Positions 2,621 to 60,352 of a DNA stretch of 64,000 bases are shown in pieces (positions within the stretch are counted from its first letter, which is position 1; each line of letters begins with the position of its first letter). Made by a program: the position numbers and the translations under genes. Below the pieces are notes generated by a model, which ran no database searches, was not told where the DNA came from, and saw only the letters and a program-made list of their open reading frames with translations. Source of the stretch: an uncultured virus (IMG/VR IMGVR_UViG_3300006173_000005) (Duplodnaviria > Heunggongvirae > Uroviricota > Caudoviricetes); IMG/VR virus record IMGVR_UViG_3300006173_000005; one strand, 5' to 3'.

Positions 2621-3727
2621 ATGTCGGAAATCGTAATTAGTACCGATTTGGGTAACGGGGGAGATAGTACTGTTTCCAACGTCGGGAAGTATAAGTTCGA
2701 CAATCCACTTTCGTTTGAGCCTATCATGGCTCCACGTACTCACGCACGAGATGTATCCGAAAAGCAATCGCATCCTACCTTGACACTTCTCAAGGGAGAT
2801 CAGGTGATGGTCTTTGGGGCGGATGACGTGTTTAAGTTCGGCAATCGCAAGTTGCGCAGACGAGCGGCGAACGAACAGCGCTATGGTAGCAGTGACTACT
2901 ACGACCTACTGGCTGTATCGTTGCTACAAGTGCTTCACAACTATCGCGGCAAGGAGACAGTTTCACCACGCATCATTATCAGTATGCCCATTGATCAGTT
3001 CAACAAGGAGCATATGGTCAAGGAGATTAAAGCGGGTGTAGCCAATATGAAGCATATTGTTGGCGAGGACGGTTGCGTTCTCAATTTATCCATTGACCCT
3101 AAGCAAGTGCTTGTGGTTCCTGAGAGTTTAGGCACTGCAATCTACTACGCCTACCAGAAAAACCTGAACCCGCAAAAGGGAACATCGCTCTCTGGCGTGA
3201 CGATGGTAGCGGATATTGGTCTACTCACTTGCAACATTTCCCGATTTGAGAATGGAGCGTATGTTCCTGAGAGCAGTTTAACTGTTGGTCGTGGTGGGTT
3301 TAATACAGTGGTATATGCCATTATCAATTGGTTAAAAGAATCGGGATATACCAATCCAGACTTTACGCTAATTGACGTTGGACTGCGTAGTGTTTGCGAT
3401 AAACCGTTTGGTTCACCGAAGGTTATTGACATTGGCGGTGGCAATCGAGTGGACGTTCAACCTGCCTATGATCCTGCTATTCAGCAGTTAACGATGGCTA
3501 TCAATGATGCACTTGGTAACGCTGCGCCCGATACGGTCAATCGCGTTTTGATTACAGGCGGCACGTCTTACCACATAGGACGCTATCTCAAGGAGTACGT
3601 TGACGTTTATTCCAATGGGATACTCGTCAAAAATCCTGCCATTGCTAATGTGTGTGGGGCATATCTTTTCTATTGGCAGATGTTGGCTCGTAAGTCTATT
3701 TTCCAATCAGATGGCGATGATGAATAG
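2621..3727 (+). CDS. parM: ParM/StbA-family actin-like ATPase
   Basis: DLGNGG (phosphate 1), VVPESLG (connect 1), VADIG (phosphate 2), VLITGG (adenosine), ANVCG (connect 2). Confidence 0.85.
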   Translation: MSEIVISTDLGNGGDSTVSNVGKYKFDNPLSFEPIMAPRTHARDVSEKQSHPTLTLLKGDQVMVFGADDVFKFGNRKLRRRAANEQRYGSSDYYDLLAVSLLQVLHNYRGKETVSPRIIISMPIDQFNKEHMVKEIKAGVANMKHIVGEDGCVLNLSIDPKQVLVVPESLGTAIYYAYQKNLNPQKGTSLSGVTMVADIGLLTCNISRFENGAYVPESSLTVGRGGFNTVVYAIINWLKESGYTNPDFTLIDVGLRSVCDKPFGSPKVIDIGGGNRVDVQPAYDPAIQQLTMAINDALGNAAPDTVNRVLITGGTSYHIGRYLKEYVDVYSNGILVKNPAIANVCGAYLFYWQMLARKSIFQSDGDDE

Positions 3728-29393: not shown

Positions 29394-30947
29394 TTAATGG
29401 GGTGCGACTACGCCGCGTGCATTACGCGCAGCTTCATCGGTATAACGTCCGGTTTTGGCGTCCCAACCCAAGTTGTTTGAGTGCCCTTGTTCCGAAACGT
29501 TGCCAGCAATAACATTGCCACCACTTAGAGCGGTGCGCAGAAGTGCGGCTTGTGGCTCATACTTAGGCCACGCGGCTTCTGCGGCAGATTCAATGTTTTC
29601 GAGTTTTTGTCCACCGTCCATGCCTGCCATCTGTGCGACGATGTACATTTTGAAATTGTCCGTCGCAGACGCAATTGCAGCCTTACCCTCTGGCTTGTTG
29701 ACATTCCATGAGGCGAAGCGCTTTGCGGCGGCAGCAGTAAGGGTATTGTCGAACTTCTCTTGAGCGTAAACAGCCAGTTGGCTTTCGCTAACCGAGTTAC
29801 GCTGTTGAAGTTCTGCAATAGCCTTCTTAAGCGCCGTTAGTTCGGCGACACTGGTTCCGCTAAATTCAGCGGCAGATTCCTTTGGCGCAAACTCTTTATT
29901 GTAGAGTTCTGCGCATGATTTCTTATGATCCATTGGCATCATTTCGTAAACTAAACCCGGCTCCATTTCACGCACGGTACATTCCGTGACGTGCTTGCGC
30001 TGCTCAGGTGTCATCATTCCGTGAAGTGCCGATGGAGCAGTCTTGGCAATTTCGGTAGCCATATCTCCGTCCATTTCTTGTACTCCTGTTTTCATTTCAC
30101 TCGTTGTCTCAAATTGACCACCCAACGCTTCAAGCGCAGCACGCTCAAACGGGGCAAAGTCGATACTTTCAAGTTCAAGTCCACTAAGACGCTGTGTGCC
30201 ATCGCCGTTGGTTTCAAAATGACCTTTTCCCCAAATGGAATTAGACAGCGTCGAACCAGCAGCCCTACGCTTCACAACCATCTGATGAAACGGCGTACCG
30301 GGATATATGTAACATTTCCCCCAAAGTGTGTCGCCAGATCGTTTTGCGCCAACCCACAGCCCTACATCGTCAGGAAACTCCCAACTTGAATTCTCTTCGC
30401 TAACATGACCCTTGCGTGCAGGTCTAGCCGAGGTGTTAACTTGCCTCTCTATTTCCCGTAACAAGTTCTCATCATATTTCAAGCCGTTATCAGAAACGGC
30501 GTTAAGTACAGCGAGTGGACGTACCACAAATAGAGGCTTTGCATCGCCCTCGGTGAGTTGCGTTTCGTTTACACTCGCTGAAACTGGCACATTAGGAAAT
30601 TGCCCACGAAAAGCAAAGTTAGGCGTAGATAAGCTAATTTCCTTAACCGAACTTGGTTCGTCGGGCTTCTTGCCAGAATGTAACCATGATTCGTAATAGG
30701 TAGCCTTATCTCCACTATAAAACTTATGTATCGCAACGCTAATTTTGGCTTTAACTGACGCCATATGCTCACTTGGAACCTGAGCTTTATTCCCCTCAAG
30801 ACCAGTGGCAATAGCTTGTACTGCAAGACGAGCGTGCTCTGCATCGCCAATCGGTAAATGCTTGCTACCATCGTCAGCAATATAGGCGTATTCAGTTTCT
30901 TGCACGTCATCAACATCATTGTCGATGTCTATGGCTGTAGTAGTCAT
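29394..30947 (-). CDS. Prohead protease/scaffold with N-terminal DUF6582-like domain
   Basis: KHLPIGDAEHARLA; VSDNGLKY, GH, SIWG, SIDF protease-like motifs; helical C-terminus. Confidence 0.7.
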   Translation of the reverse strand: MTTTAIDIDNDVDDVQETEYAYIADDGSKHLPIGDAEHARLAVQAIATGLEGNKAQVPSEHMASVKAKISVAIHKFYSGDKATYYESWLHSGKKPDEPSSVKEISLSTPNFAFRGQFPNVPVSASVNETQLTEGDAKPLFVVRPLAVLNAVSDNGLKYDENLLREIERQVNTSARPARKGHVSEENSSWEFPDDVGLWVGAKRSGDTLWGKCYIYPGTPFHQMVVKRRAAGSTLSNSIWGKGHFETNGDGTQRLSGLELESIDFAPFERAALEALGGQFETTSEMKTGVQEMDGDMATEIAKTAPSALHGMMTPEQRKHVTECTVREMEPGLVYEMMPMDHKKSCAELYNKEFAPKESAAEFSGTSVAELTALKKAIAELQQRNSVSESQLAVYAQEKFDNTLTAAAAKRFASWNVNKPEGKAAIASATDNFKMYIVAQMAGMDGGQKLENIESAAEAAWPKYEPQAALLRTALSGGNVIAGNVSEQGHSNNLGWDAKTGRYTDEAARNARGVVAPH

Positions 30948-43802: not shown

Positions 43803-44018
43803 GAAAGACTCCTTTGTAAATTTTTGTGAAAATCTAGTGTGGGGTCACGGTAAAACCCATCCCCGGGTTCTTAGACACAAGATTACTTGACTATTACCTA
43901 CTTGGTATCTAATATTGGTAATATCACAACTTTGTGGTACAATACACCTATCGCATAATCACCACAGGATATAAAAGGTATCCTGTGGTGCAAGTAACAC
44001 AGATAGGATGTATTACCA

Positions 44019-44602: not shown

Positions 44603-45181
44603 TCAAGATTTTTCAATATCCGTAAAACTTTGCTCATTTCGCGCTTTGGCGAGACGCTGATCTCTGAGCGTATCTCGATAATCATTTATCATCTCAATGC
44701 TATCAAATCCAGATAGCTCGCACTCATTATGGAATAGCTTCCAAGCCTGTATCATCTCCGGCGTAAGACCGGACATTTTTTCTATCTTATCCCATAGTAT
44801 CCCGAAGGTAACAAACCGCTGCTGCAAGGTAGCATTAGCGATAGAGTTATCATCTTTAGTAGTATCAACAATGCGAGACATTAAGTCTTGCATATCCTGC
44901 AAGTGTAGCGCTTTTGTTTCCGCTACTACCTGAGGGATATTGACAGGTTGTTTGGCTAGACTATTATCGGCTGTCTCAACCTTATCCCCATAATTATCCC
45001 ACCAATGCTTCATGGTATAGGTTGATACGTTACGACCTAATAACTTGCGAACAGCTTCTATGCTGGCGTTGGTCGCCATGCCTCCGTGTAGTTTCATCGT
45101 AGTCACGGCACGTATTTTGTCCTGTTCGCTGTACGGGCCTTGATGGGTAATAGGTCGTGTGCGTTTTGGGTCTTTGGTCAC
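44603..45181 (-). CDS. Putative terminase small subunit (HTH N-terminus)
   Basis: YSEQDKIRA...AVRKLLGRNVSTYTMKHW HTH then helices; first gene of late strand. Confidence 0.5.
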   Translation of the reverse strand: MTKDPKRTRPITHQGPYSEQDKIRAVTTMKLHGGMATNASIEAVRKLLGRNVSTYTMKHWWDNYGDKVETADNSLAKQPVNIPQVVAETKALHLQDMQDLMSRIVDTTKDDNSIANATLQQRFVTFGILWDKIEKMSGLTPEMIQAWKLFHNECELSGFDSIEMINDYRDTLRDQRLAKARNEQSFTDIEKS

Positions 45182-45342: not shown

Positions 45343-45379
45343 TTGACAACTAATCATAGTGGATATATACTAGTAATCA
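45343..45379 (+). promoter_or_regulatory. Early promoter P1
   Basis: TTGACA-17-TATACT followed by AGTAATCA. Confidence 0.85.
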
Positions 45380-45410
45380 TAGTCAAATAAACAAGGTAAC
45401 AGGGTGTTCT

Positions 45411-45599
45411 ATGTCTAAGCTCTCTGAACTGAACCAAGCCAATAAACGTATCGCTGAAAAACTCTCAACTGGCAAGTTTAAGGATACTGGCGTTAAGTAT
45501 AGTGCGGAACAAGCAGTGGCCGATCATATCAATCCTGCCCTACGCTTGACTGCACAAACATCAACCAATGGTCAATTAACATGGAAACAAGGTAGCTAA
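45411..45599 (+). CDS. Small early protein
   Basis: First ORF after P1. Confidence 0.65.
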   Translation: MSKLSELNQANKRIAEKLSTGKFKDTGVKYSAEQAVADHINPALRLTAQTSTNGQLTWKQGS

Positions 45600-45601
45600 C
45601 A

Positions 45602-45850
45602 ATGAACAACAAATATTTCTGCCCTTGCTGTGGACATTTTTACGGTCAAGATGATAGCGATGGGCATATCGGCGTTGATAAGATGATTAGAGTACGGGAT
45701 AACAGCATCGTACTTATGCTTACATGCTGGAATAGCGATTGTACTTTAAACACAGCAACAACAACCATACGCAGTCTTGAGAATGGCGATTTATGCGAAC
45801 GCTTTGAGTGTTGCGAATCGTTTGATTATCAGACCGGATTATCTAAATAA
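45602..45850 (+). CDS. Cys-rich zinc-ribbon-like early protein
   Basis: CPCCG...CWNSDC. Confidence 0.6.
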   Translation: MNNKYFCPCCGHFYGQDDSDGHIGVDKMIRVRDNSIVLMLTCWNSDCTLNTATTTIRSLENGDLCERFECCESFDYQTGLSK

Positions 45851-46000
45851 GGTCGTGATATGAACAGAAAACAGCGTCGGGCAGTTCTACACAGTCAATT
45901 GGTTGTCAAGCGATACATAGCCCAAAACTCTATGTATCATGCGTGGGAAGTTGCCCTACACCATTTGTCAAACCTTTATGGTCATAAGGATTTATAAATC

Positions 46001-46660
46001 ATGTATAACAAACCGGATGAATTCGCTAACCTAGAGGAAACACTTATCCATTGGAAGTATCAATATGAGCGCTATCATACAACGCGATTGCGATCATGGC
46101 GGACGATTACAGGTAAATGGATTGATCCCGCTTGCTTGTTTCAATTGGTAGAACTTGGACTAGCTACAGTCAAACTATTTAACGATATGTGGCTAGACAA
46201 TCAATTCTATTTAACCGACTTAACCCCATTGGTTGATCCCGATAACGACTATTGGTGGCAAAACGACAATAACGATTATCCACGCGATACAGTTGAGTAT
46301 ATTGTCTATCTTGAGCCGCGTGTATGGGGCAAAAGACGCCAATTAGCCATTAATCTAATCTACGATCTAGGCAATGGTCATAATCCCCTAGATCGTATCA
46401 ATTCAGGATTTTATGACATTGTACTGGATGCTGATATTTATCAATTCATCATGACCGAAGTCAAGCCGTTTAACGAAACATTGCAATCTAATCTTGCCTG
46501 GTCGAGTATTCAACGTGAAATAGGCGAATTGAACCAAAAAACCGCTGACGTATATGCCTTAACTGATAATTTCAAATTAGAAGCTAATAAGCTATCGAAT
46601 TGGCGCAAGTCCCTGATAGATACAATGCTAATTTTGGTTTATGGGCGCAGCGATAACTAG
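46001..46660 (+). CDS. Hypothetical early protein
   Basis: RBS AAGGA. Confidence 0.65.
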   Translation: MYNKPDEFANLEETLIHWKYQYERYHTTRLRSWRTITGKWIDPACLFQLVELGLATVKLFNDMWLDNQFYLTDLTPLVDPDNDYWWQNDNNDYPRDTVEYIVYLEPRVWGKRRQLAINLIYDLGNGHNPLDRINSGFYDIVLDADIYQFIMTEVKPFNETLQSNLAWSSIQREIGELNQKTADVYALTDNFKLEANKLSNWRKSLIDTMLILVYGRSDN

Positions 46661-46683
46661 GTAGTACTTTAGTACCAATTCTA

Positions 46684-46720
46684 TTGACAACCAATCAAGA
46701 GCACTTTATACTAGTAATCA
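46684..46720 (+). promoter_or_regulatory. Early promoter P2
   Basis: TTGACA-17-TATACT AGTAATCA. Confidence 0.85.
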
Positions 46721-46757
46721 TAGTAAGGTTGATGATTAATAAGGAATAAGGTGTTCT

Positions 46758-46919
46758 ATGTCTAAGCGCTCACTGTTCAAGATGATTTTAGCGGTTGCAG
46801 AACTAGACCGCGAATTCGCAATCTTTTACATCGAATCTGCGATCAAACAAGCTGATATTTGCCCCGATGAAAACGTTAGCTATTACCATGAGCTATTAGC
46901 GCTCATTGAGGGTAATTAA
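46758..46919 (+). CDS. 53-aa early protein (below ORF-track cutoff)
   Basis: MSKRSLFKM...; start context GGTGTTCTATGTCTAAGC identical to gene at 45411. Confidence 0.7.
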   Translation: MSKRSLFKMILAVAELDREFAIFYIESAIKQADICPDENVSYYHELLALIEGN

Positions 46920-46924
46920 CCAAT

Positions 46925-47221
46925 ATGACACAATCACAGCGTGCTTTACTTGCAGTGGCGGATATGACACAAGGTGAGTATCTAACCTATCTTGAAGATG
47001 AGTACATGATGCTGCTAAAGAGTAGCAATCCTTATCAGGCAATGGATAGCCTAATCGAATTATCCTCATTTATTGCTCGCATTGAGGATATTACACCAAA
47101 GCAGTTTAACCACTATCGCAAGTTGTATTTACAGGAGAATCCGTATACACAAATCGAGGTTATCGCCAGTCCATTGCCAATTGCAGAAGAATCAACCGAA
47201 GTGCAGTTAAGTTTATTCTAA
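46925..47221 (+). CDS. Hypothetical early protein
   Basis: C-terminus QLSLF resembles a sliding-clamp-binding motif. Confidence 0.6.
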   Translation: MTQSQRALLAVADMTQGEYLTYLEDEYMMLLKSSNPYQAMDSLIELSSFIARIEDITPKQFNHYRKLYLQENPYTQIEVIASPLPIAEESTEVQLSLF

Positions 47222-47307
47222 ATTTAACGGAATAGGCCATAAGTGAGGACTTATGGCTTAACCCGTGCAATTTAGCACGATAAGCAAAGTATGAGGGAAT
47301 AACTATC

Positions 47308-47796
47308 ATGTCTTACTCAAGTAAAGTTAACAACTGGCGTCGTGAATTTATGGACAAGTTCGGAAAAATGGCGGTGAAATATACTCCATATACTGAACAT
47401 GGCAATCTGATCGCCTACGATCAAGCGCGGGAAGTGGCTAAATTGATTATGCGTCATGCTGCTACTCACCAACGATTGCAAGAGGAAGAATGCAACGGCG
47501 TTGATTTTATGGCCCCATATTCATCAGCCTATATGCTGAATCTATACAATAATGATCGCCCCGCTCATACAGCGCTTATGGCAAAAATTTCACAGCGCTA
47601 TGATCGTTGGGAGAAACGTCTACAGCACCGCCAAGAACTAATTGAACGTCGTATCTTGCAACTTGCTGCACAATTTGGATTTAGTGCTGTGTTTGAAGGC
47701 GATCCACGCGGGGCAACCGTCAAAATCATATTTCCCGATGGGTCATACGATGACTCTGCACATGAGGGCTGGTGCGTTCCGACCAATAATCGATAA
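47308..47796 (+). CDS. Conserved phage hypothetical (GDPRG family)
   Basis: ECNG...FEGDPRG motif. Confidence 0.65.
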   Translation: MSYSSKVNNWRREFMDKFGKMAVKYTPYTEHGNLIAYDQAREVAKLIMRHAATHQRLQEEECNGVDFMAPYSSAYMLNLYNNDRPAHTALMAKISQRYDRWEKRLQHRQELIERRILQLAAQFGFSAVFEGDPRGATVKIIFPDGSYDDSAHEGWCVPTNNR

Positions 47797-47875
47797 TCTC
47801 GTTTAATCCCTCACACACTGCGCATTAAGGTAATAGTGCGCAGTAGTGAGCGAATAAGCATAAGGATAACGCACC

Positions 47876-48232
47876 ATGACCACCAACGATATTGAAATTT
47901 TAGCCCTAGCCTATAAAGCCTCTCAAGCATGGCGCGAATATGCTGCAATGCGTGCTATCGTGGATCGGGCAGAAGAGTATATGAATTCAATTCCATTGCT
48001 AAATAATCCTAAAGACAATTTTGATGAATACGAAGCTGCATACAATATCTTGTGCGATTTTAGGGTAACACTAGACTGCTACGCCAGTGTGCGCGATAAC
48101 GCTTTTCTTAACTGGCGTCACAAACTGCCAGAGATGAATAGTTTCATCGCTTACAATCGCTGTAACACAATGGCGCGACAATATGAAACACTGCTACAAA
48201 ACAGCTATCTACAGTTTATCAAGTCGGTTTAA
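47876..48232 (+). CDS. Hypothetical early protein
   Basis: RBS AAGGA. Confidence 0.6.
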   Translation: MTTNDIEILALAYKASQAWREYAAMRAIVDRAEEYMNSIPLLNNPKDNFDEYEAAYNILCDFRVTLDCYASVRDNAFLNWRHKLPEMNSFIAYNRCNTMARQYETLLQNSYLQFIKSV

Positions 48233-48544
48233 GGACTATACGCTCATGTATAAGCAGATTTATAAAAATCAATATGGTATGCACCGCAAAAATAAGACGC
48301 TATGTACTCCTGATGATAGCTGCCCTGTTGGTGGACGTAGTAACTTACATCACGTTATGCAAGCTGCTTATAAAACCTATGTATACGAGCGCTGTTATCT
48401 GTGTGATCCACTAACTTTTATGGATCGTTATCCGGTTGAGTACATTAAGCAGCACATGGACTATTTCAAGCAAGAAATTAGAAACACTTATCAGCTATCC
48501 AATAGCTTCAAGTATAGCAAAGCAGCACAAGGATAAGGTGTACT

Positions 48545-49633
48545 ATGTCTCAGGTGGAATTAAAACAAGTAAACATATCAGATGTTCGAATCCGGTTTAA
48601 CTACCGAGAAGAATATAATCAAGAATTCCTCTCATGGTTAACTGATCAAATTGCCACTAAGGGTTTTAATCCCGCTAAACCATTGGACGTTTACCTTGAA
48701 GACGGTATCTACTGGATTGTAGATGGCAATACGCGCTATACAGCCGCTATGCGTGTCGCACTAGCAAAGCCCTATACACTCTATCCAGAATGTCCCATAT
48801 GGGTAGCTGTACGCCGACATAAGCCTAGCGACGCTGAATTTGCACTATACAGCGCGCAGGGCAACGAAACTAACCGTGAGGTTGATATTGTCTCTCAAGC
48901 AAAGAATTATCAACGCATCCTAGACGGCGGTCTGACCATTGCCGATATTTGTAAGCAACTAAACCACACGACTACCTATGTTGAAGATAGACTTGCTATC
49001 CTTAAACTGGCAGATGGTATTCAGGATTATGTCAAAAAAGGCAGTTTAACTATTAAGTTTGCCGTAACCATGTCCAAGCTAAATTTCAACCGCCAATGGA
49101 TTGCATTTAAGGCTTACAACTTACGCAATCTCAAACTGTGCGATTTTGAAGATATGGTCAACGATTTATACATGCAGCAAGAAAAAGAGAATCAAAAAGA
49201 CTTCTTTGGTCTGATGTCAATTGAAGAAATAGAGGCAAAAGCGCAAGAACTCGCCAGCACTATACAGACCACCAAGACACCAAAGATCAGCGACTTAGAA
49301 GCACAGCTAGAGCTAGAGCGCAAAGCACGGCTAGAGGCTGAACAAAAAGCACTAGCCGAAGCACAGGAGCGCGAACGCATCTATAAGGCTGGCGAACAGC
49401 TATACAATCGCTATACAGCCCTGCTTAAAGAATTCGAGTACCAAAAGACTACACTCAATCTACTCGAAGTCCATAACGCAGCACTTGAGATACAACTAGA
49501 GACACCAAAATCGAAATCTACCAAACGCACCAGCAAAGCTAAACAGGCTTCTCTCAATTTCGACGAGATGACAGAAGAAGAAAAGATTAAGTTTATCGTC
49601 AACAATCCAGACCTAATCAATCCGAAGGACTAA
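48545..49633 (+). CDS. ParB/Srx-domain protein with HTH and coiled coil
   Basis: NYRE, PLDV, WIVDGNTRYTAA, N..R.V...QAKNYQRIL..G.T..DI...L. Confidence 0.85.
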   Translation: MSQVELKQVNISDVRIRFNYREEYNQEFLSWLTDQIATKGFNPAKPLDVYLEDGIYWIVDGNTRYTAAMRVALAKPYTLYPECPIWVAVRRHKPSDAEFALYSAQGNETNREVDIVSQAKNYQRILDGGLTIADICKQLNHTTTYVEDRLAILKLADGIQDYVKKGSLTIKFAVTMSKLNFNRQWIAFKAYNLRNLKLCDFEDMVNDLYMQQEKENQKDFFGLMSIEEIEAKAQELASTIQTTKTPKISDLEAQLELERKARLEAEQKALAEAQERERIYKAGEQLYNRYTALLKEFEYQKTTLNLLEVHNAALEIQLETPKSKSTKRTSKAKQASLNFDEMTEEEKIKFIVNNPDLINPKD

Positions 49634-49639
49634 ACTATC

Positions 49640-50143
49640 ATGACCACCACATTACTACTACCCGCTACAGCCTCACGCACCAAACACGAACGCCGGATGA
49701 TTCTTTGGGCGCTTGCCAAAGCTGGCAATAACGTCAAAGGTAATAGTCCACGCCAGTACGATACAAATTGTCATTATCCTGTTATTTATCTGCCTGCGCC
49801 TATACAGCCTATCAGCGACGATCCATTTGAATCCGATGAAGCTGATATCGTAGCGACCTACGATGGGGCTTATTGCAGCATCCGCGTACTTATCGGTAGA
49901 CTGCTGCCACAAAGCACCCAAAACGCTCTCTTTACTCGCATCGGTACAATTGGCTCTCATATCGCCCGATGCACCGTTAATCTGTCCACAAACGCCAATA
50001 ACACCGTACTGGTTATTACACCTAACAAAACTATACAGGCCCGTGAAATCGACACCCTAAAAGCACTGGCGGTTTCCGTTGTACGTGGCTTTATCATTGA
50101 ACTCGATAACACACCTGTCGCTATACAGACCAGTCTATTCTAA
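49640..50143 (+). CDS. Hypothetical early protein
   Basis: RBS AAGGA; ends QTSLF. Confidence 0.6.
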   Translation: MTTTLLLPATASRTKHERRMILWALAKAGNNVKGNSPRQYDTNCHYPVIYLPAPIQPISDDPFESDEADIVATYDGAYCSIRVLIGRLLPQSTQNALFTRIGTIGSHIARCTVNLSTNANNTVLVITPNKTIQAREIDTLKALAVSVVRGFIIELDNTPVAIQTSLF

Positions 50144-50163
50144 GTTGTAACCATTGGCGACAG

Positions 50164-50200
50164 TTGACAAGTAATCATTAAACGGCTATACTAGAAATCA
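50164..50200 (+). promoter_or_regulatory. Early promoter P3
   Basis: TTGACA-17-TATACT AGAAATCA. Confidence 0.85.
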
Positions 50201-50220
50201 AGATAAATTGGGAGGTAAAC

Positions 50221-50436
50221 ATGAATCGCACCGTCAAAGAAATTATTAGGCTGCACAAGTCCGGTTACACAAACCATCGTATCGCAGAAGCGCTGAATGT
50301 AGAGCATGGACTTGTGCGCGACACCATCAATAAGTTGTACGACCAGAAAGCCCAAGTAGGTCAACACAAAGACCTAGCCAAGAATACGGCTAATTATCGA
50401 ACCGCATCAACACGCAAAGCAAAGAACAGGGGTTAA
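50221..50436 (+). CDS. Small HTH protein
   Basis: IIRLHKSGYTNHRIAEALNV. Confidence 0.75.
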   Translation: MNRTVKEIIRLHKSGYTNHRIAEALNVEHGLVRDTINKLYDQKAQVGQHKDLAKNTANYRTASTRKAKNRG

Positions 50437-50664
50437 CCATGAAGCGAATTGCTATTGCTACATTCATTCTATTTGTCGCATTGTTCTGTCTGACAATGCA
50501 AAGCGACACAGAACTATCTTATACATGCCAACTTAACAAACAGCAACTACAAGTCATCGCGCTACTCAAATCGCGTAGTGACACACCTGCCAATTTTATC
50601 AGCGCAGAACAAGCGCGATTCTGCGATGAAAACAAAATTCGCTCCATGATGAATATTTCACACA

Positions 50665-51243
50665 GTGAGCCTGTCTACAATGACCAGTAGTACTATACTT
50701 GCAAAACCTATACAGTCTACAAATGTAGACGGCGCTATGCAGGAACTACGAGCGCTGCTCCTACTCAGTAACGCACCAGCCGTCGAAGTAGACTACTATA
50801 CAGCCCGATTAGACGCACTGGCGTTCGTTAGCCTGCCAGATCGCCAGCCCGATGAACCTGACATAGCAATCGCATGGGCTTATGGTCTGCTTTCAGTGAT
50901 TGGCGTAGACCCCTATTATCCTGCCCAGAAGGGCGACCAAGCCTTCTGGTTATCCGATGGTGGTCAACTACTGGCAGGCGTGCTATACAACGCCTATACG
51001 GGCCGATTGATAGCCATTAAAGATGCAGCGGAAATGTTGGGAATATTCCCACAGAACATCGGGCGCTGGGTAAAGCCCGGAATGCTGACTGCTGTACCAC
51101 TACCGCGCTGGACGCAGACCAAGTGGAGCGCCTATTACCGTGAACGTCGTGGGGATACTGAGCGCGTCCATTATATGCTCGTGCGCAGTGAAGTGATGAA
51201 GCTCAAACGGCATCGCACCCAAGCAAAAAAGCACAAGGAATAA
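50665..51243 (+). CDS. Protein with excisionase/MerR-like HTH
   Basis: AIKDAAEMLGIFPQNIGRWVKPGML. Confidence 0.6.
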   Translation: MSLSTMTSSTILAKPIQSTNVDGAMQELRALLLLSNAPAVEVDYYTARLDALAFVSLPDRQPDEPDIAIAWAYGLLSVIGVDPYYPAQKGDQAFWLSDGGQLLAGVLYNAYTGRLIAIKDAAEMLGIFPQNIGRWVKPGMLTAVPLPRWTQTKWSAYYRERRGDTERVHYMLVRSEVMKLKRHRTQAKKHKE

Positions 51244-51645
51244 CACTATGGACACCGAATGGTATCTACGAGGTCGGGGTGTCACGATTAAGGCAGGTGC
51301 AGTGTCCAAGTTTGGCGCAAAGTTTGAGCGCGATACGAAGGGTACACTGGCCCGTGACACCGAACCTGATGCAGAGAAATTCTCAGTATGGCTATACGAG
51401 CCGGTGAGTAATCGGTATATCGACAATGTGAAAACTGTCGTTATACCACGTGAATTCGTTGAATTTGAGCAGGGAGGATAAATGTTTCTATTACTAGTAT
51501 TATCCATCGTGGTTCATTTTGGTCTATACATCCATCGTCGTGCGCAGTTCCAAAAGCGCGCCAACATTCCTATGCCAACGCATCAACTACCGAAGTATCG
51601 CTAAGTCTATACTGTCCATATTGCACAAAGAAGAAATATCTAATC

Positions 51646-51882
51646 ATGACCAATCATATTACTCATCAAGCGCTCGATCAGAGTGAAACTTACTGCTATT
51701 CATGGTGGGAAGATGGCACAGTTACCCGCAGTTTACTTGATCGTCCTACCGCACACAGAGATGAACACGGCTATTACGTTTATGGCTCACTTCGCATCAA
51801 TCCACATGTACCAGTGATTCCACCGCCCACTTGGAACAATGTCGAATTCAAGTCCCGCATTGCAACTAAGTATGCCAAATAA
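51646..51882 (+). CDS. Hypothetical early protein
   Basis: Start context AATCATGACC shared with neighbours. Confidence 0.6.
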   Translation: MTNHITHQALDQSETYCYSWWEDGTVTRSLLDRPTAHRDEHGYYVYGSLRINPHVPVIPPPTWNNVEFKSRIATKYAK

Positions 51883-51965
51883 TCTCCACAATCACTAACA
51901 ATCATTGGGGGCTGCGCATCCATGATTACGCAGAATTTCAGCAATAAGAAGGAAATCTAACTATC

Positions 51966-52259
51966 ATGTCTGACAATCTACAGGTTTACGTTATCACTTG
52001 GCACGGCGTTGTTGTGGCAATATTCACCGACCAACGGCAAGCCCTGTTACATGCACGTGGACTAGCGCGTACAGAAATGGGTGATTATCGAGAGCAAGGG
52101 TCTCCTGAACATTTCATGAACTTCTATAACGAAATAGGAGAAAACGCACCAATCACTTTATCTGGACATCTAGTTAATGCACCAGACAGATTAGATGAAG
52201 CCTATCACGATGCTGCCATCTCGTATGAAATAGCTCAACGTATCGTATCAGGCTACTAA
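51966..52259 (+). CDS. Hypothetical early protein; candidate sRNA target
   Basis: RBS AGAAGGA; last gene before convergent terminator. Confidence 0.65.
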   Translation: MSDNLQVYVITWHGVVVAIFTDQRQALLHARGLARTEMGDYREQGSPEHFMNFYNEIGENAPITLSGHLVNAPDRLDEAYHDAAISYEIAQRIVSGY

Positions 52260-52271
52260 TCCTCCACCACC

Positions 52272-52300
52272 AAAACGGGCTACCCATCAGTAGCCCGTTC
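52272..52300. terminator. Bidirectional terminator at early/middle convergence
   Basis: AAAACGGGCTAC CCATCA GTAGCCCGTT. Confidence 0.8.
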
Positions 52301-55828: not shown

Positions 55829-56386
55829 TTATACACCCCATCTGCAATAATTCAACGCATACAGCGTATCTGTCAACGCTTCATAACCTATCGCAATGTC
55901 AATCGCATCAAGTCTATCCATCCCACTGTAGAACAACCTTCGTTCTTTATAATCCATTTGACGCCGAAGCATAAAGCGTTCTAATTTCACGGTAGATGTA
56001 AAAACATCGCCAATCACCCGCTCTAACTTCCACTCGTAGCCTTTTTGTCGATGCCTATCCTTATTGGTTAATGCGTACACTAGTCGCCACAGGGTAGCCT
56101 TAACGCCCTTGCTTGGCTCCCAGTGCCCAGTATACCGAGGTTGTTCCCAATCATCGAAAAAGAATTGAGTGCGAACAATCGTATCATTCACAACGCGCAA
56201 ATTAGATTGCGGATTGAATTGAGGATACTTGCCTTTTACGTAACGATTGAACTCATACAGTTCGTGAACTAGATAATCTATTCTGCCGATGACATTGGAG
56301 CCGTATTCACTTTTAATCCAATTGCAAAATTGAACGTTTACATCAGGTGGATAACTGGAGATTGTGTTATTATTGAGTGCAGACAT
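55829..56386 (-). CDS. Hypothetical protein
   Basis: RBS AAGGA, own promoter and leader hairpin. Confidence 0.65.
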   Translation of the reverse strand: MSALNNNTISSYPPDVNVQFCNWIKSEYGSNVIGRIDYLVHELYEFNRYVKGKYPQFNPQSNLRVVNDTIVRTQFFFDDWEQPRYTGHWEPSKGVKATLWRLVYALTNKDRHRQKGYEWKLERVIGDVFTSTVKLERFMLRRQMDYKERRLFYSGMDRLDAIDIAIGYEALTDTLYALNYCRWGV

Positions 56387-56494
56387 GAGGCTACTATCCT
56401 TGTGTCTATGAGATTACTTGCATGTTGAGTGCGGTAATCTCGTTTCATTTGATGCTTAATTGTACACCCAAATCCACTTACGCGCTACAACAAC

Positions 56495-56575
56495 AAAAGC
56501 CGCCTACGTGTACCTCCGCAGGCGGGTCTTATCCACAGTCACCATAACCGTCAAGTCGAGGTGGTTGCGAATGAT
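56495..56575 (-). ncRNA. Predicted sRNA-3 (~80 nt)
   Basis: -10 TACAAT (56587-82), GCAACCACCT 5' motif, CCGCCTGCG/CGTAGGCGG terminator + TTTT. Confidence 0.55.
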
Positions 56576-56592
56576 GAGTTAATTGTACACCT

Positions 56593-56660
56593 AAAACACA
56601 AACGGCGATACGTGAATATCGCCGCTTATGCCTGTCAAACATTAGCAAAGGAGGTTGCTG
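56593..56660 (-). ncRNA. Predicted sRNA-2 (~68 nt) with CCUCCU loop
   Basis: TGG-TATAAT; AGCAA-CCTCCT-TTGCT hairpin; CGGCGATA/TATCGCCG terminator. Confidence 0.65.
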
Positions 56661-56683
56661 GTAATCATTATACCATGAAAACG

Positions 56684-56713
56684 AAAACCACTAACTAGTT
56701 AGGTTAGTGGTTT
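56684..56713 (-). terminator. Terminator of tRNA-Met transcript
   Basis: AACCACTAAC...GTTAGTGGTT TTCGTTTT. Confidence 0.75.
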
Positions 56714-56747
56714 ATCCGAGTCGTGGAGCCTCTTTAATATTGGGTTG

Positions 56748-56819
56748 TAGCGCGGAAAGGAATTGCACCTTCGACCTTCTGGTTATGAGCCAGACGAGCT
56801 ACTACTGCTCTACCCCGCC
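56748..56819 (-). tRNA. tRNA-Met (CAT)
   Basis: Cloverleaf GGCGGGG..TCTGG-CTCATAA-CCAGA..GAAGG-TGCAATT-CCTTT; one acceptor mismatch, no encoded CCA. Confidence 0.85.
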
Positions 56820-56958
56820 ATAAACTCGCTCACGGTTTTACAAAGACGTGAGCGATAACCTTTGCTGCCATTTACCGTCATACAGTGACCATAGTAACGC
56901 ACCTAGCAGATACGTCCTATATCCTGCTGCTTAGGTCAGGATACTTACTACATGGTTA

Positions 56959-56987
56959 ATCATAATCCCTACTGCAAAATCTGTCAA
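56959..56987 (-). promoter_or_regulatory. Promoter for leader RNA + tRNA-Met
   Basis: TTGACA-17-TATGAT. Confidence 0.8.
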
Positions 56988-57058
56988 CCGCACAAAAAAA
57001 CAACCCGCAATCCTCTATGGGTATCGCAGGTTATTACGCACAGTCATCGTGTGCGATG

Positions 57059-57128
57059 TTGGGATGGCAAGAATCGAACTTGCGACGACGGAATCGCATC
57101 CGCTGTTTTACCACTAAACTACCACCCA
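57059..57128 (-). tRNA. tRNA-like RNA (Gln-like body) with 6-nt anticodon loop TGCGAT
   Basis: Intact D arm and GCAAG-TTCGATT-CTTGC T arm; two acceptor mismatches. Confidence 0.7.
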
Positions 57129-57179
57129 CGTTCACAGTATAAATCTACAGTTGCGCACCTGTTTTACTCCGTGAACTTG

Positions 57180-57254
57180 TCGGGCTGCGCAGATTTGAAC
57201 TGCGCTCCTATAGGCTCTAAATCCTATCGTGCTAACCGTATACACCATTACCCG
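57180..57254 (-). tRNA. tRNA-like RNA (Pro-like body) with 8-nt anticodon loop ATTTAGAG
   Basis: Intact D arm and CGCAG-TTCAAAT-CTGCG T arm; C1-G72, A73; two acceptor mismatches. Confidence 0.7.
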
Positions 57255-57336
57255 CATACATGGGACCAACGACCAAACCCTACAACCCATGTACTGCTCA
57301 GTACGATATTGGTCTCATGCGCCTATCATACATCAT

Positions 57337-57424
57337 AAAAACGGAACGCGCCACACTCTATTGGGGGAGTAGGTGGCGCGTCCGCTATCGTAAAGCAATC
57401 AGAAGGAAACTAATCATCACGACC
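57337..57424 (-). ncRNA. Predicted sRNA-1 (~88 nt), antisense to translation-initiation regions
   Basis: TTGACA(57459-54)-17-TAGACT(57436-31); GC-rich terminator + TTTTT. Confidence 0.7.
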
Positions 57425-57634
57425 AATTACAGTCTACTTGGTTATCGTTTGCGTGTCAACAAATACCCTATAACCGATACAATGGCAAGTGTTACAGCGA
57501 ATGTTACACAGTGCCAGGTGAGTAGTTCCCCAGGGCTTACTGAGAAAACGGGAACCATACCATCCCTACGATGAGTGTAATCAGGCACGCGATAATAATC
57601 GCTAATACATTGTAAATATGTTCACGCTTGATTG

Positions 57635-57763
57635 TCATAGATTACGGAACCCTCCACTTACTTTTGCCAACCAGTTGACGACAATAACACTAACGATAAT
57701 TAGCGTCAAAATGGCCCCAGCGAGGCCACCGCAGACTAGCAATAATAAATCGTGTACATTCAT
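57635..57763 (-). CDS. 42-aa single-TM peptide
   Basis: MNVHDLLLLVCGGLAGAILTLII...; ATGA-coupled to upstream gene. Confidence 0.55.
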   Translation of the reverse strand: MNVHDLLLLVCGGLAGAILTLIIVSVIVVNWLAKVSGGFRNL

Positions 57764-58518
57764 GGCATCGTGGTCGTTTCAGGGGGTGCAGTAGGCTTCT
57801 GGGCGTCAAGCTGGTTCTGTAAATCTCTCACTTGACCTTGTAACTGCCTTACTTGCGTCTCAAGCTGAACCACTTTCTCATTAGCTGTTGCTAAATCTTT
57901 TTCGACTTGAGCTTTTTCAGTCACCGCCGTCGCGTACTGCCTTTCAAGTTCCACGATACGCGCCTTCGCCAACTCAAGTTCAATCTGAGTAAGTCTCAAT
58001 TTCTCTAGCAGTTCGGACTTAGTAGTCTCAAGTTCGACCTGTGCTTCGGTGAGCGCCTTTTGCGTTCCTCTTAGTGCATCATCCATACTGCCCACCTTTT
58101 CCACAAGCTCGGCTATTTGGGCATCCCGCGCTTGGCTATCCAACGCTCGCTGCTTGAGCAAAGAATCAACTTCACTGGTAAACTTCTTTATCTTATCTTC
58201 GTTGTCTTCAACCCGTTTGTGGTAGGCTTGGTTTTCAGTGAGAACCGCTGCTTTTTGTGCAGCGAGTTCCCGGTTTGCATCTGCGAGGTAGGTAAGTACG
58301 GATGTCATCTGACTGCTAAACTGATTGACCGTTGTCAGCGTATCTTGAGCAGTGCTTTGCGTGGCCTGCGCCGTCACTTTCGCTTCAATCGCTGGCAGTT
58401 TTAATTGATCAATCAGACGTTCAAAATTCTTTTGATTGCGTACTAGAAATAAGGTAATGGGGCCACCAACTGCAATTACACTACCAATGAGTGTCCCAAT
58501 AATAACATTAACGTCCAT
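57760..58518 (-). CDS. Membrane-anchored long coiled-coil protein
   Basis: N-terminal TM then heptad-rich helix. Confidence 0.75.
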   Translation of the reverse strand: MDVNVIIGTLIGSVIAVGGPITLFLVRNQKNFERLIDQLKLPAIEAKVTAQATQSTAQDTLTTVNQFSSQMTSVLTYLADANRELAAQKAAVLTENQAYHKRVEDNEDKIKKFTSEVDSLLKQRALDSQARDAQIAELVEKVGSMDDALRGTQKALTEAQVELETTKSELLEKLRLTQIELELAKARIVELERQYATAVTEKAQVEKDLATANEKVVQLETQVRQLQGQVRDLQNQLDAQKPTAPPETTTMP

Positions 58519-58864
58519 TGGATGTCACCCGCTGGATCATTTGTGGAAGCAAAGTCAAATCGGATTTGACGATAAATCCCTGTGCGCCTAAATTGATTAA
58601 AGTAGTCATCGAGTCTTCTTGTAAAAAACCCGTGACGATAATCATCGGGATACGCAGCGTCGTAAACTTAGGTTCATTCAGCGCTAAGAGGGCGTTGTAC
58701 TGCGGCAAATTGTAATCCGCGAGTATAATGTCCCACCGCTCCTCTAATGCGTCTAAAAACGCTTTTTCAGTGGCAACAAGAAGCGACGTATACTCTAACC
58801 CGCGTAAACTGTAACGGATTAGCTGCACATCGTTAGGATTGTCCTCTAGGATAAGTATACGCAA
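58508..58864 (-). CDS. Single-domain response regulator (CheY-like receiver)
   Basis: ILILEDN, DIILADYNLP, IIVTG, GAQGFIVK; upstream TTGACT-17-TATGCT. Confidence 0.9.
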   Translation of the reverse strand: MRILILEDNPNDVQLIRYSLRGLEYTSLLVATEKAFLDALEERWDIILADYNLPQYNALLALNEPKFTTLRIPMIIVTGFLQEDSMTTLINLGAQGFIVKSDLTLLPQMIQRVTSNGR

Positions 58865-60352
58865 GTGTCACCTAAGTAAGTGTTATTGAGTTCCCCTTAA
58901 GCATATGCGATAGTTAATCGAAAGTCAAGGAAGTGTTAATAGAACAACGAAATACTAACGATTATTGAAATGATATATCGCGGCTTGGGTTTGCCTATCA
59001 ATCGCATTCAGGTCAAGTATATAAGCAGAATCTTTGGGTAAAAACCCGCTAACATAAACGCACTCAATTCGTTGATGTCCAGTTATATCAAATATCGACA
59101 ATTTACCGCGACGTTTAATGGTACATCCCCCTCTCTTAAACATATGCAAAAAGAATAGCACCTCTACCATAGGAATAACCGCAGCCTCACGAGGATGTAA
59201 TATATCATGCAGTTTATTGAAATGGTCGGCAAAATTACCACCAGCAGTATAATTCATAGCTTAATCCTCTTTTGACGCTCTGTAATAATTCCAATCTATC
59301 GGTGGAATAATCGTGTATTCCGGTAATGTATCTAATACCTTATCTAACGGAACGCCCATCATGATAGATTCCGCAGCACTCATGAGAACATGCTTGTAAT
59401 CATGAATAGTGTACCCATACCTGGCTGGGTGAAAGTTGCTGTAAATACTCGCTTGACAAGCGTGCATGATAGCAAATACCAAAGCGCCAACGCGCTCTTG
59501 CTCATCACGCTTGTGATTTTTAGCAGTATCGACCATTCCTACCATACCGCGTAACTGCTCAATCGTATCATCTAATTGCATCGTTACATTGTCTCCACAT
59601 AGTATTCTTCGTTAGTCAGTGTACTTTCGTGACCACAATCCATGCAATGACATACGCACAATCCCTCATCGTTACGTGAAATCTTGATGTATATCAGACT
59701 GTGGCACTTAGGGCAGGTGGGTTTCTCGTGTTTAACCCCCAACGGAAACAGGACAGCCCAACCGAGTTCATTTAGATATTCCTCAGTCATGCGCAAATAG
59801 AAATTGGTGCGGTTGAGACTATTCTGCTGAACATGGATAGACTTTCGTTCATCGAGCGACATATACGGATAACGTTCGCTGAGATAAGCAATTACGGGCT
59901 TCTCATCGTCTTCAAATTCAATGTCCTGCGGTACTGTGTAGACAATCGGATCGGGCATATGGTCTTGCTGATAGGTAATGGTAATCACTGCTTAATTCCT
60001 CTTGATTGCACTGCTCAACTTGCGGTTTGTTCCACGTTCAATGGCAAGTTCTTCTAGCCTGCGATACAACCAGTTACGTGCGTCCTCTTTCGCCTGGGCA
60101 AAGCTCGTAGCAGGCTTACGCTGAATAGTCTCTAACTTGAGTTGGCGTTTGTTGTGCTTTAAGTCGCGCACGGTGAAATAATATTCACCTTGAATGAAAT
60201 CGGGCGTACTATTGCCCATCCAAACCGCTACTAGGAACTGGTAGTGCAGTCCCGGTTGTTCAAAGACAGCAGAGAAGCGCACGCCACCCCACTTGTCACC
60301 GTCCTTTTGACCAATTCCGTCCTTGTGCCAAACTAGTAATTCATCCACAATG

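Follow-up and report, generated by a model that had tools for sequence, protein, structure and literature searches.

Gene content of the phage contig

We analyzed a 64,000-nucleotide stretch of DNA (the window), which is almost the whole of a 64,787-base contig of a tailed phage. It carries genes for terminase, portal, head, tape-measure and endolysin proteins, three Bro-N/Ant genes (8156, 55847 and 63426), a ParM-like gene (2621–3727), a ParB-like gene (48545–49633) and two repressor-like HTH genes. One of the latter, at 463–774, faces a divergent TTGACA-17-TATGAT promoter in a layout that resembles an immunity switch (region 463–870). None of the 102 ORFs scanned against PHROGs was an integrase, hence the phage may be a plasmid-like prophage.

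The right half of the window reads almost wholly leftward, except for a plus-strand cluster at 45343–52299. This cluster contains 18 mostly unknown genes (45411–52259), three TTGACA-17-TATACT promoters (at 45343, 46684 and 50164) and a terminator (52274–52299). From the promoter and operon layout we infer that it is of early type. The three promoters (45343–45385, 46684–46725 and 50164–50205) have AATCA boxes in common just past their −35 and −10 elements, which may represent an operator. Strong intergenic hairpins were found at 47218–47275, just upstream of gene 47308, and at 43960–43990, between the divergent genes 43802 and 44019.

At least 80 terminase relatives were listed, mostly from Chloroflexota, with some from Gemmataceae and other groups. 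As their identities were only 23–36%, a Chloroflexota host is a guess. None of 121 Chloroflexota genomes had Hfq over the cut-off (5 of 14 for the control rings), a figure that applies to this phage only via the same 23–36% terminase matches.

A candidate small RNA in a gene-free block

In the gene-free block 56387–57759 we identified a sigma-70-type promoter on the minus strand, TTGACA-17-TAGACT (57431–57459), that agrees with the consensus at 10 of 12 positions. Counting 7 nt on from the −10 hexamer, we predict the +1 at 57424. Together with the terminator and the fold, this promoter points to a candidate small RNA of about 88 nt with two hairpins (57337–57424, minus strand). A preliminary description of this DNA had assigned an sRNA to 57337–57459. 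The sequence elements of such a unit are indeed present, but this span takes in the promoter, whereas the RNA itself would occupy about 57424–57337.

The 31-nt 5′ pairing domain (57394–57424, minus strand) is predicted to form a weak hairpin with a 7-nt loop, UUUCCUU, which is unpaired with a predicted probability of at least 0.9. The loop is complementary to the AAGGAAA/GAAGGA ribosome site of the target genes discussed below, and the 5′ arm covers their AUG. At the other end, a run of five U follows a GC-rich 3′ hairpin (57337–57385, minus strand). The two probably form an intrinsic terminator, given that a U-run lies 3′ of the stem on the minus strand only; the hairpin was missing from the output of a simple terminator scan. 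The segment 57335–57430 folds at −37.7 kcal/mol (z −5.6), and none of 200 shuffles matched this value.

Consensus scans on their own prove little; they gave 45 promoter-like sites in the window with 36.7 expected. The exact form TTGACA-17-TAnnnT, however, occurs in only seven of the 14 sigma-70-like sites scoring at least 10/12. All seven lie outside called genes, and the site at 57459–57431 is one of them. When the 5′ ends downstream of all 14 sites were compared, 57424 was the only one that paired unusually well with two gene starts (z −5.4 against 40 shuffles per site, with −2.2 for the runner-up). At gathering score, Rfam families in the window were limited to tRNA matches, with none for the small RNA. 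A DNA sequencing run gave five short near-identical pieces, none of which covered the small RNA.

The candidate small RNA is complementary to the starts of early-type genes

The first 24 nt of the small RNA, i.e., the minus strand of 57424–57401, pair with the start of gene 51966–52259 (97 aa) exactly as the preliminary description had counted by hand, at 22 of 24 positions with 3 G-U pairs, 2 mismatches and 1 bulge in the target. The helix in fact runs on to 28 pairs over 31 nt (51940–51971, plus strand; −31.5 kcal/mol) and spans the ribosome site and AUG. The good pairing claimed for 49624–49645 was likewise confirmed. Here 20 pairs fall within nt 1–24 and 25 form in all (49618–49645, plus strand; −29.8 kcal/mol), again over the ribosome site and AUG, of gene 49640–50143 (167 aa). 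For both genes pairing stops at the predicted +1, 57424, which is the first base of the pairing sequence, and covers exactly the ribosome site and AUG. The two sites lie 5.4 and 7.8 kb from the small RNA, and the duplexes contain mismatches and bulges.

Both genes end a transcription unit. Gene 51966 is the last gene of the operon read from promoter 50164. Gene 49640 is the last one before that promoter, and the ParB-like gene 48545–49633 has its stop codon within the 49640 target site.

Partial pairing had also been noted with the starts at 51646 and 47308. It is there for both (18/21 and 19/25, respectively), although the two are not equivalent. Gene 51646–51882 (78 aa) forms 21 pairs (51623–51651, plus strand; −24.6 kcal/mol) and is a probable third target. 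At gene 47308–47796 (162 aa) the 25 pairs include 5 G-U (47283–47313, plus strand) and the stability is lower (−20.6 kcal/mol), which leaves a weak candidate.

We ranked all start regions of the window by several measures, using a list of 101 starts made from our own heuristic calls with hand edits. By duplex energy, 49640 was first, 51966 second, 51646 fourth and 47308 fourteenth. Cofolding of the whole RNA with the 101 starts placed 51966, 49640, 51646 and 50221 on top, all of them in the plus-strand cluster, and 47308 below the top 15. Among 2346 ATG contexts, 51966 ranked first and 49640 second, with a gap of 4 kcal/mol before the third. The lead was narrow among 2524 windows from both strands, where the starts of 49640 and 51966 were the two best non-self hits (−29.8 and −29.8, then −28.3). 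Plain DNA alignment of the locus with 873 tiles also gave the 51966 and 49640 starts as best (scores 47 and 44; third 39). The same type of alignment in 125 unrelated loci (1.68 Mb) reached at most 40. The third-best tile (39) is the start of an unlisted minus-strand ORF of about 21 codons, 53269–53204, whose ribosome site is clear.

The strongest three predicted targets encode proteins of 97, 167 and 78 amino acids. Neither these nor the 47308 product could be assigned to a Pfam or PHROG family, and atlas searches with 49640 and 51966 named none. In type I toxin-antitoxin systems, the target encodes a small toxin that usually acts on the membrane.

Pairing with two starts exceeds the chance level

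Of 1000 dinucleotide shuffles, a single one equalled the score of the second-best duplex; with the anti-Shine-Dalgarno (anti-SD) and anti-AUG letters held fixed, 16 of 1000 did so. With accessibility included, the corresponding numbers were 3 and 21 of 292 shuffles. For the third-best score they were 52 and 70 of 292. The top three targets all fell into the plus-strand cluster in 0 of 292 shuffles, or in 8 of 292 with the anti-SD and anti-AUG letters fixed. Among 2323 SD-bearing starts of unrelated loci, none reached −31.5 kcal/mol and four reached −29.8 kcal/mol, so that the binomial probability of at least two in 101 is 0.013. The −20.6 kcal/mol of 47308 was reached by 216 of these 2323 starts. 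Raw duplex energy is not unique to the locus: when 305 intergenic 24-mers were ranked by it, the one offset by a single base came 26th, and most of those ahead of it had a higher GC content.

We conclude that the complementarity to 51966 and 49640 is real and exceeds chance, by a modest amount when generic anti-SD and anti-AUG letters are taken into account. The ranking against shuffled RNAs that the preliminary description had proposed as a check thus held for these two genes, top of the 101 starts and rarely equalled, but not for the third-best score, which shuffles often equalled. Pairing above chance is not established for 51646 and 47308. Scores as good as that of 51646 are common in shuffles; 51646 is plausible as a third target, whereas the case for 47308 as a target is weak.

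Three of the candidate targets share a start tag

The motif AACTATCATG is present at exactly three places in the window, all of them gene starts, 47308, 49640 and 51966 (3 of 81 ATG starts; 48 of 20,000 column shuffles). A common start context for the four genes had been proposed, and it applies strictly to these three, while 51646 carries a variant. The C of the tag, kept in all three AACTATCATG genes, is mismatched by the small RNA (A11 opposite C). Because the RNA mispairs with this conserved C, it cannot be the sole reason for the tag, and would act as a compromise partner.

A second start tag, GGTGT[A/T]CTATGTCT, is found at 45399–45419, 46746–46766 and 48533–48553, i.e., at the starts of 45411, 46758 and 48545. 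These are two promoter-first genes and the ParB-like gene, and the small RNA does not match this tag. A search of the window for a mirror RNA of the second tag turned up no suitable unit; the best complements lay opposite coding or leader DNA. The leader of gene 44603–45181, on the opposite strand, resembles the second start tag.

Proposed mode of action and alternative explanations

The promoter, the terminator and several null models all favor a small RNA that acts in trans on the starts of 51966 and 49640, and probably of 51646. Read from the sequence, it is probably a phage-encoded antisense RNA that would keep ribosomes off the final genes of two early-type operons, with c4-like action and without being a C4 member; we hold this reading with some, not high, confidence. 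Host sigma-70 polymerase would initiate at about 57424 and end at the hairpin and U5 at about 57337. The exposed UUUCCUU loop would then seed on AAGGA, the ribosome site in a target mRNA, whereupon the weak 5′ hairpin would unzip. The resulting duplex of 25–28 pairs would hide about −26 to +6 around the AUG of 51966 and 49640, and would be less stable at 51646. It would block 30S loading and perhaps invite double-strand cleavage. The RNA might act in this way early in infection, or while the phage persists as a plasmid-like prophage. The absence of Hfq over the cut-off from the Chloroflexota genomes fits long unaided pairing. A second contact between the 3′ loop and 51904–51911 was dropped, because this stretch is folded in the target and the cofold did not use it.

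As both strong targets are operon-last genes, the RNA would dim a few operon-distal products, not the whole early programme. This bears on the role proposed in the preliminary description, where one sRNA shuts off a set of early genes in an early-to-late or lysogeny switch. The set shrinks to 51966, 49640 and probably 51646, as only 2–3 of the 18 cluster genes score well. The switch itself found no backing: no regulator is among the targets, and the promoter of the RNA is of sigma-70 type, as are the early ones, and bears no late or lysogenic mark. In its full form, with one RNA silencing the early programme for an early-to-late transition or lysogeny, we consider it quite unlikely, even though the phage looks temperate, like the c4-using P1. 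The repressor-like gene 463–774 beside its divergent promoter, the three Bro-N/Ant genes, the ParM-like and ParB-like genes and the missing integrase in 102 ORFs all give it this look, and the best three or four targets all lie within the early-type cluster. Against such a master role, the 2–3 matched genes include no known regulator, the repressor-like and three antirepressor-like genes are outside the top 15 targets, and the first genes of two operons bear the other, unmatched tag.

Alternatively, the RNA could be real and have host messages as its working targets. Its match to the phage would then only reflect how it arose, from a duplicated gene leader that came under an opposite-strand promoter. 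Two small-RNA-like units in the same block, described below as A and B, would suit this explanation, having extended −10 boxes and strong folds and no significant phage targets. So would the mismatch at the conserved C of the tag, and the alignment of the locus plus strand with the 51966 leader over about 75 nt, well past the pairing domain. At 51646 the similarity extends 3 nt beyond the predicted +1; this looks like a relic copy and would count against the antisense reading. Against a relic, pairing with the two best targets ends at the predicted +1 and covers exactly the ribosome site and AUG, and the loop fits the AGAAGGA site of the targets and not the GGAGG consensus. Also, three of the four transitions between the locus and the 51966 site still pair as G-U, a weak argument. 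We regard host targets with a relic phage match as unlikely.

We judge it very unlikely that no functional RNA is made at all. On this view the plus strand would carry the remnant of a small gene start, or else repeat the operator-like AATCA box at the DNA level, and the adjacent hairpin would simply terminate read-through from 57760–58518. The copy does have the orientation of the targets on the DNA, with ACG in place of ATG and a frame open for 51 codons from 57419. Yet no plus-strand promoter of at least 9/12 lies between 54198 and 57456, the flanking genes and tRNAs are all on the minus strand, and the overlapping plus-strand ORFs are absent from the protein collection and have no PHROG match. 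As for an operator copy, the box A[CG][CT]AATCA[TA] occurs 10 times: the three early promoters account for five copies, and single copies lie at 51649 and, within the small RNA gene, at 57409; but a box of 7–8 bases cannot yield 25–28 pairs. Moreover, the minus-strand promoter belongs to the best class in this genome.

Search for relatives

Searches in viral contigs, metagenomes, phages and Chloroflexota gave no homolog of the small RNA or its targets, and as the RNA has no relatives, its case is weak on its own. An exact 19-mer had no match in viral contigs, nor did an exact 29-mer in metagenomes. Queries with the response-regulator and terminase found nothing in viral contigs, and 55829–56386 was in none of 97 metagenome candidates. 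blastn of 56300–58900 against phages returned 105 records; the 20 listed all matched at tRNA-Met. Terminase alignment gave at most 38%; apart from these alignments, one terminase relative at 80% and one relative of 57760–58518 at 53% exist. No real homolog was found for the 51966 protein or the ParB-like protein, and none of the plasmids searched matched the ParM-like protein. In 401 Chloroflexota genomes the only matches were 2 short ones within the Bro-N gene, and 151 family-level genomes had no match. Pattern searches gave 16 loci with the promoter plus seed, none judged by eye to have a terminator and a matching start, 4 loci with the tag in one copy each, and 2 unrelated loci with the hairpin.

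Comparison with known phage RNAs and start tags

The closest known parallel in mode of action is the c4 antisense RNA of P1 and P7, which has 77 nt and pairs in trans around the ribosome site of a message of its own phage with loop-exposed letters (PMC12197685). P1 is a plasmid prophage (PMC8201110). The small RNA is of similar size, has predicted loop-exposed letters that pair over SD and AUG, and its phage may be a plasmid prophage too. The Rfam C4 covariance model did not match it, neither in the window at gathering score nor in 56380–57800 at E values up to 10. Also, the Bro-N/Ant starts (8156, 55847 and 63426) are outside the top 15 of 101, so that a c4-type antirepressor target (icd-ant) was not found. 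Unlike for c4, the targets are early-type genes 5–8 kb away on the other strand, pairing is by one continuous helix of 25–28 pairs, and two or three messages are involved.

The P22 RNA sar is encoded opposite its target. Like lambda OOP and aQ, it is a short phage RNA repressing a phage gene by pairing; OOP and aQ are tabulated as cis-acting and sar as trans (PMC12197685). In contrast to a cis-encoded RNA, the small RNA lies far from its targets and its complementarity is imperfect. The trans-acting phage sRNAs PreS of lambda and VpdS of VP882 have 50–90 nt and are Hfq-linked; VpdS affects phage and host messages (PMC12197685; bioRxiv 10.1101/2024.10.31.621285), and PreS activates a host gene (bioRxiv 10.1101/2024.10.31.621285). 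Those RNAs need Hfq, whereas in the probable host phylum none of the 121 genomes had it over the cut-off.

In a 2025 review, none of the about 22 tabulated phage sRNAs is described as repressing several distant early genes of its own phage via their start regions (PMC12197685). We found no published phage RNA that represses several distant early genes of its own phage in a literature search with few subscription papers and no supplements; the 38 uncharacterised sRNAs of PMC12197685 may bear on this novelty.

Start tags longer than the SD core have been described as start-associated sequences (SAS) of cluster K phages (Pope 2011, PMC3203893). They lie at the starts of non-structural genes, and the authors left open whether an RNA or a protein binds them. 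One SAS copy is in opposite orientation, away from any start (PMC3203893), and the role of SAS was still called unknown in 2024 (PMC11373665; SAS are also treated in PMC12699233). The AACTATCATG tag is alike in being a repeated tag beyond the SD core at three non-structural starts, with one imperfect copy read in antisense. It differs in sequence, not having the 13-bp SAS consensus, in copy number (3–4 compared with 11–19), in including the AUG and in its imperfect mirror copy.

In phage Anaya we counted 16 SAS matches in the 30.8 kb examined, 15 forward and 1 inverted. The inverted copy folds as the loop of a long hairpin in an intergenic element (29760–29960 of the locus examined) that was matched in 215 Mycobacterium phage records. 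This cluster K element, near the right genome end, combines a TAGACT box that resembles a promoter with several hairpins whose stems vary. The box and several hairpins are kept in 15 genomes that we chose to span the 60 listed. Read from the element alignment, the anti-tag loop is in 5 of the 15 and a CU-rich variant in 3; the other 7 have neither. The parallel with cluster K is thus suggestive and not general. An undescribed general phage module, with an early-type start tag and one separately transcribed mirror-image RNA that represses without Hfq, present here in a Chloroflexota phage and also explaining the cluster K SAS, is a tentative proposal that we consider possible but doubtful.

Should the small RNA work as predicted, phages could use RNA, with neither Hfq nor a regulatory protein, to control scattered genes as one set. 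What start-associated tags do, a question dating from 2011, could then be tested directly, and the held-down targets would be prime candidates for host-takeover proteins.

Neighboring elements in the gene-free block

Two more small-RNA-like units lie on the minus strand, unit A at about 56662–56593 and unit B at about 56576–56495. Each has an extended −10 box (56675 and 56589, respectively), a hairpin with a U-run, a strong fold (z −5.1 and −4.1) and an anti-Shine-Dalgarno near the 5′ end. Neither has significant phage targets, with second-best scores equalled by 17 of 120 (A) and 19 of 120 (B) shuffles, and they therefore serve as internal negatives for the small RNA. Possibly they are aimed at host messages. 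With these similarly built neighbors, the block can be understood as a cluster of sRNAs.

The block also contains a normal tRNA-Met (56747–56819) and two tRNA-like genes on the minus strand, 57179–57254 and 57058–57128, with abnormal anticodon loops. ARAGORN assigned them the four-letter anticodons ttag and gcga, the first in an 8-nt loop, and they could be frameshift-type, decoy or decayed tRNAs. Structured leaders on the minus strand precede tRNA-Met (56952–56822, with its own promoter at 56987) and the first tRNA-like gene (57335–57255), each with a non-significant z of −1.6.
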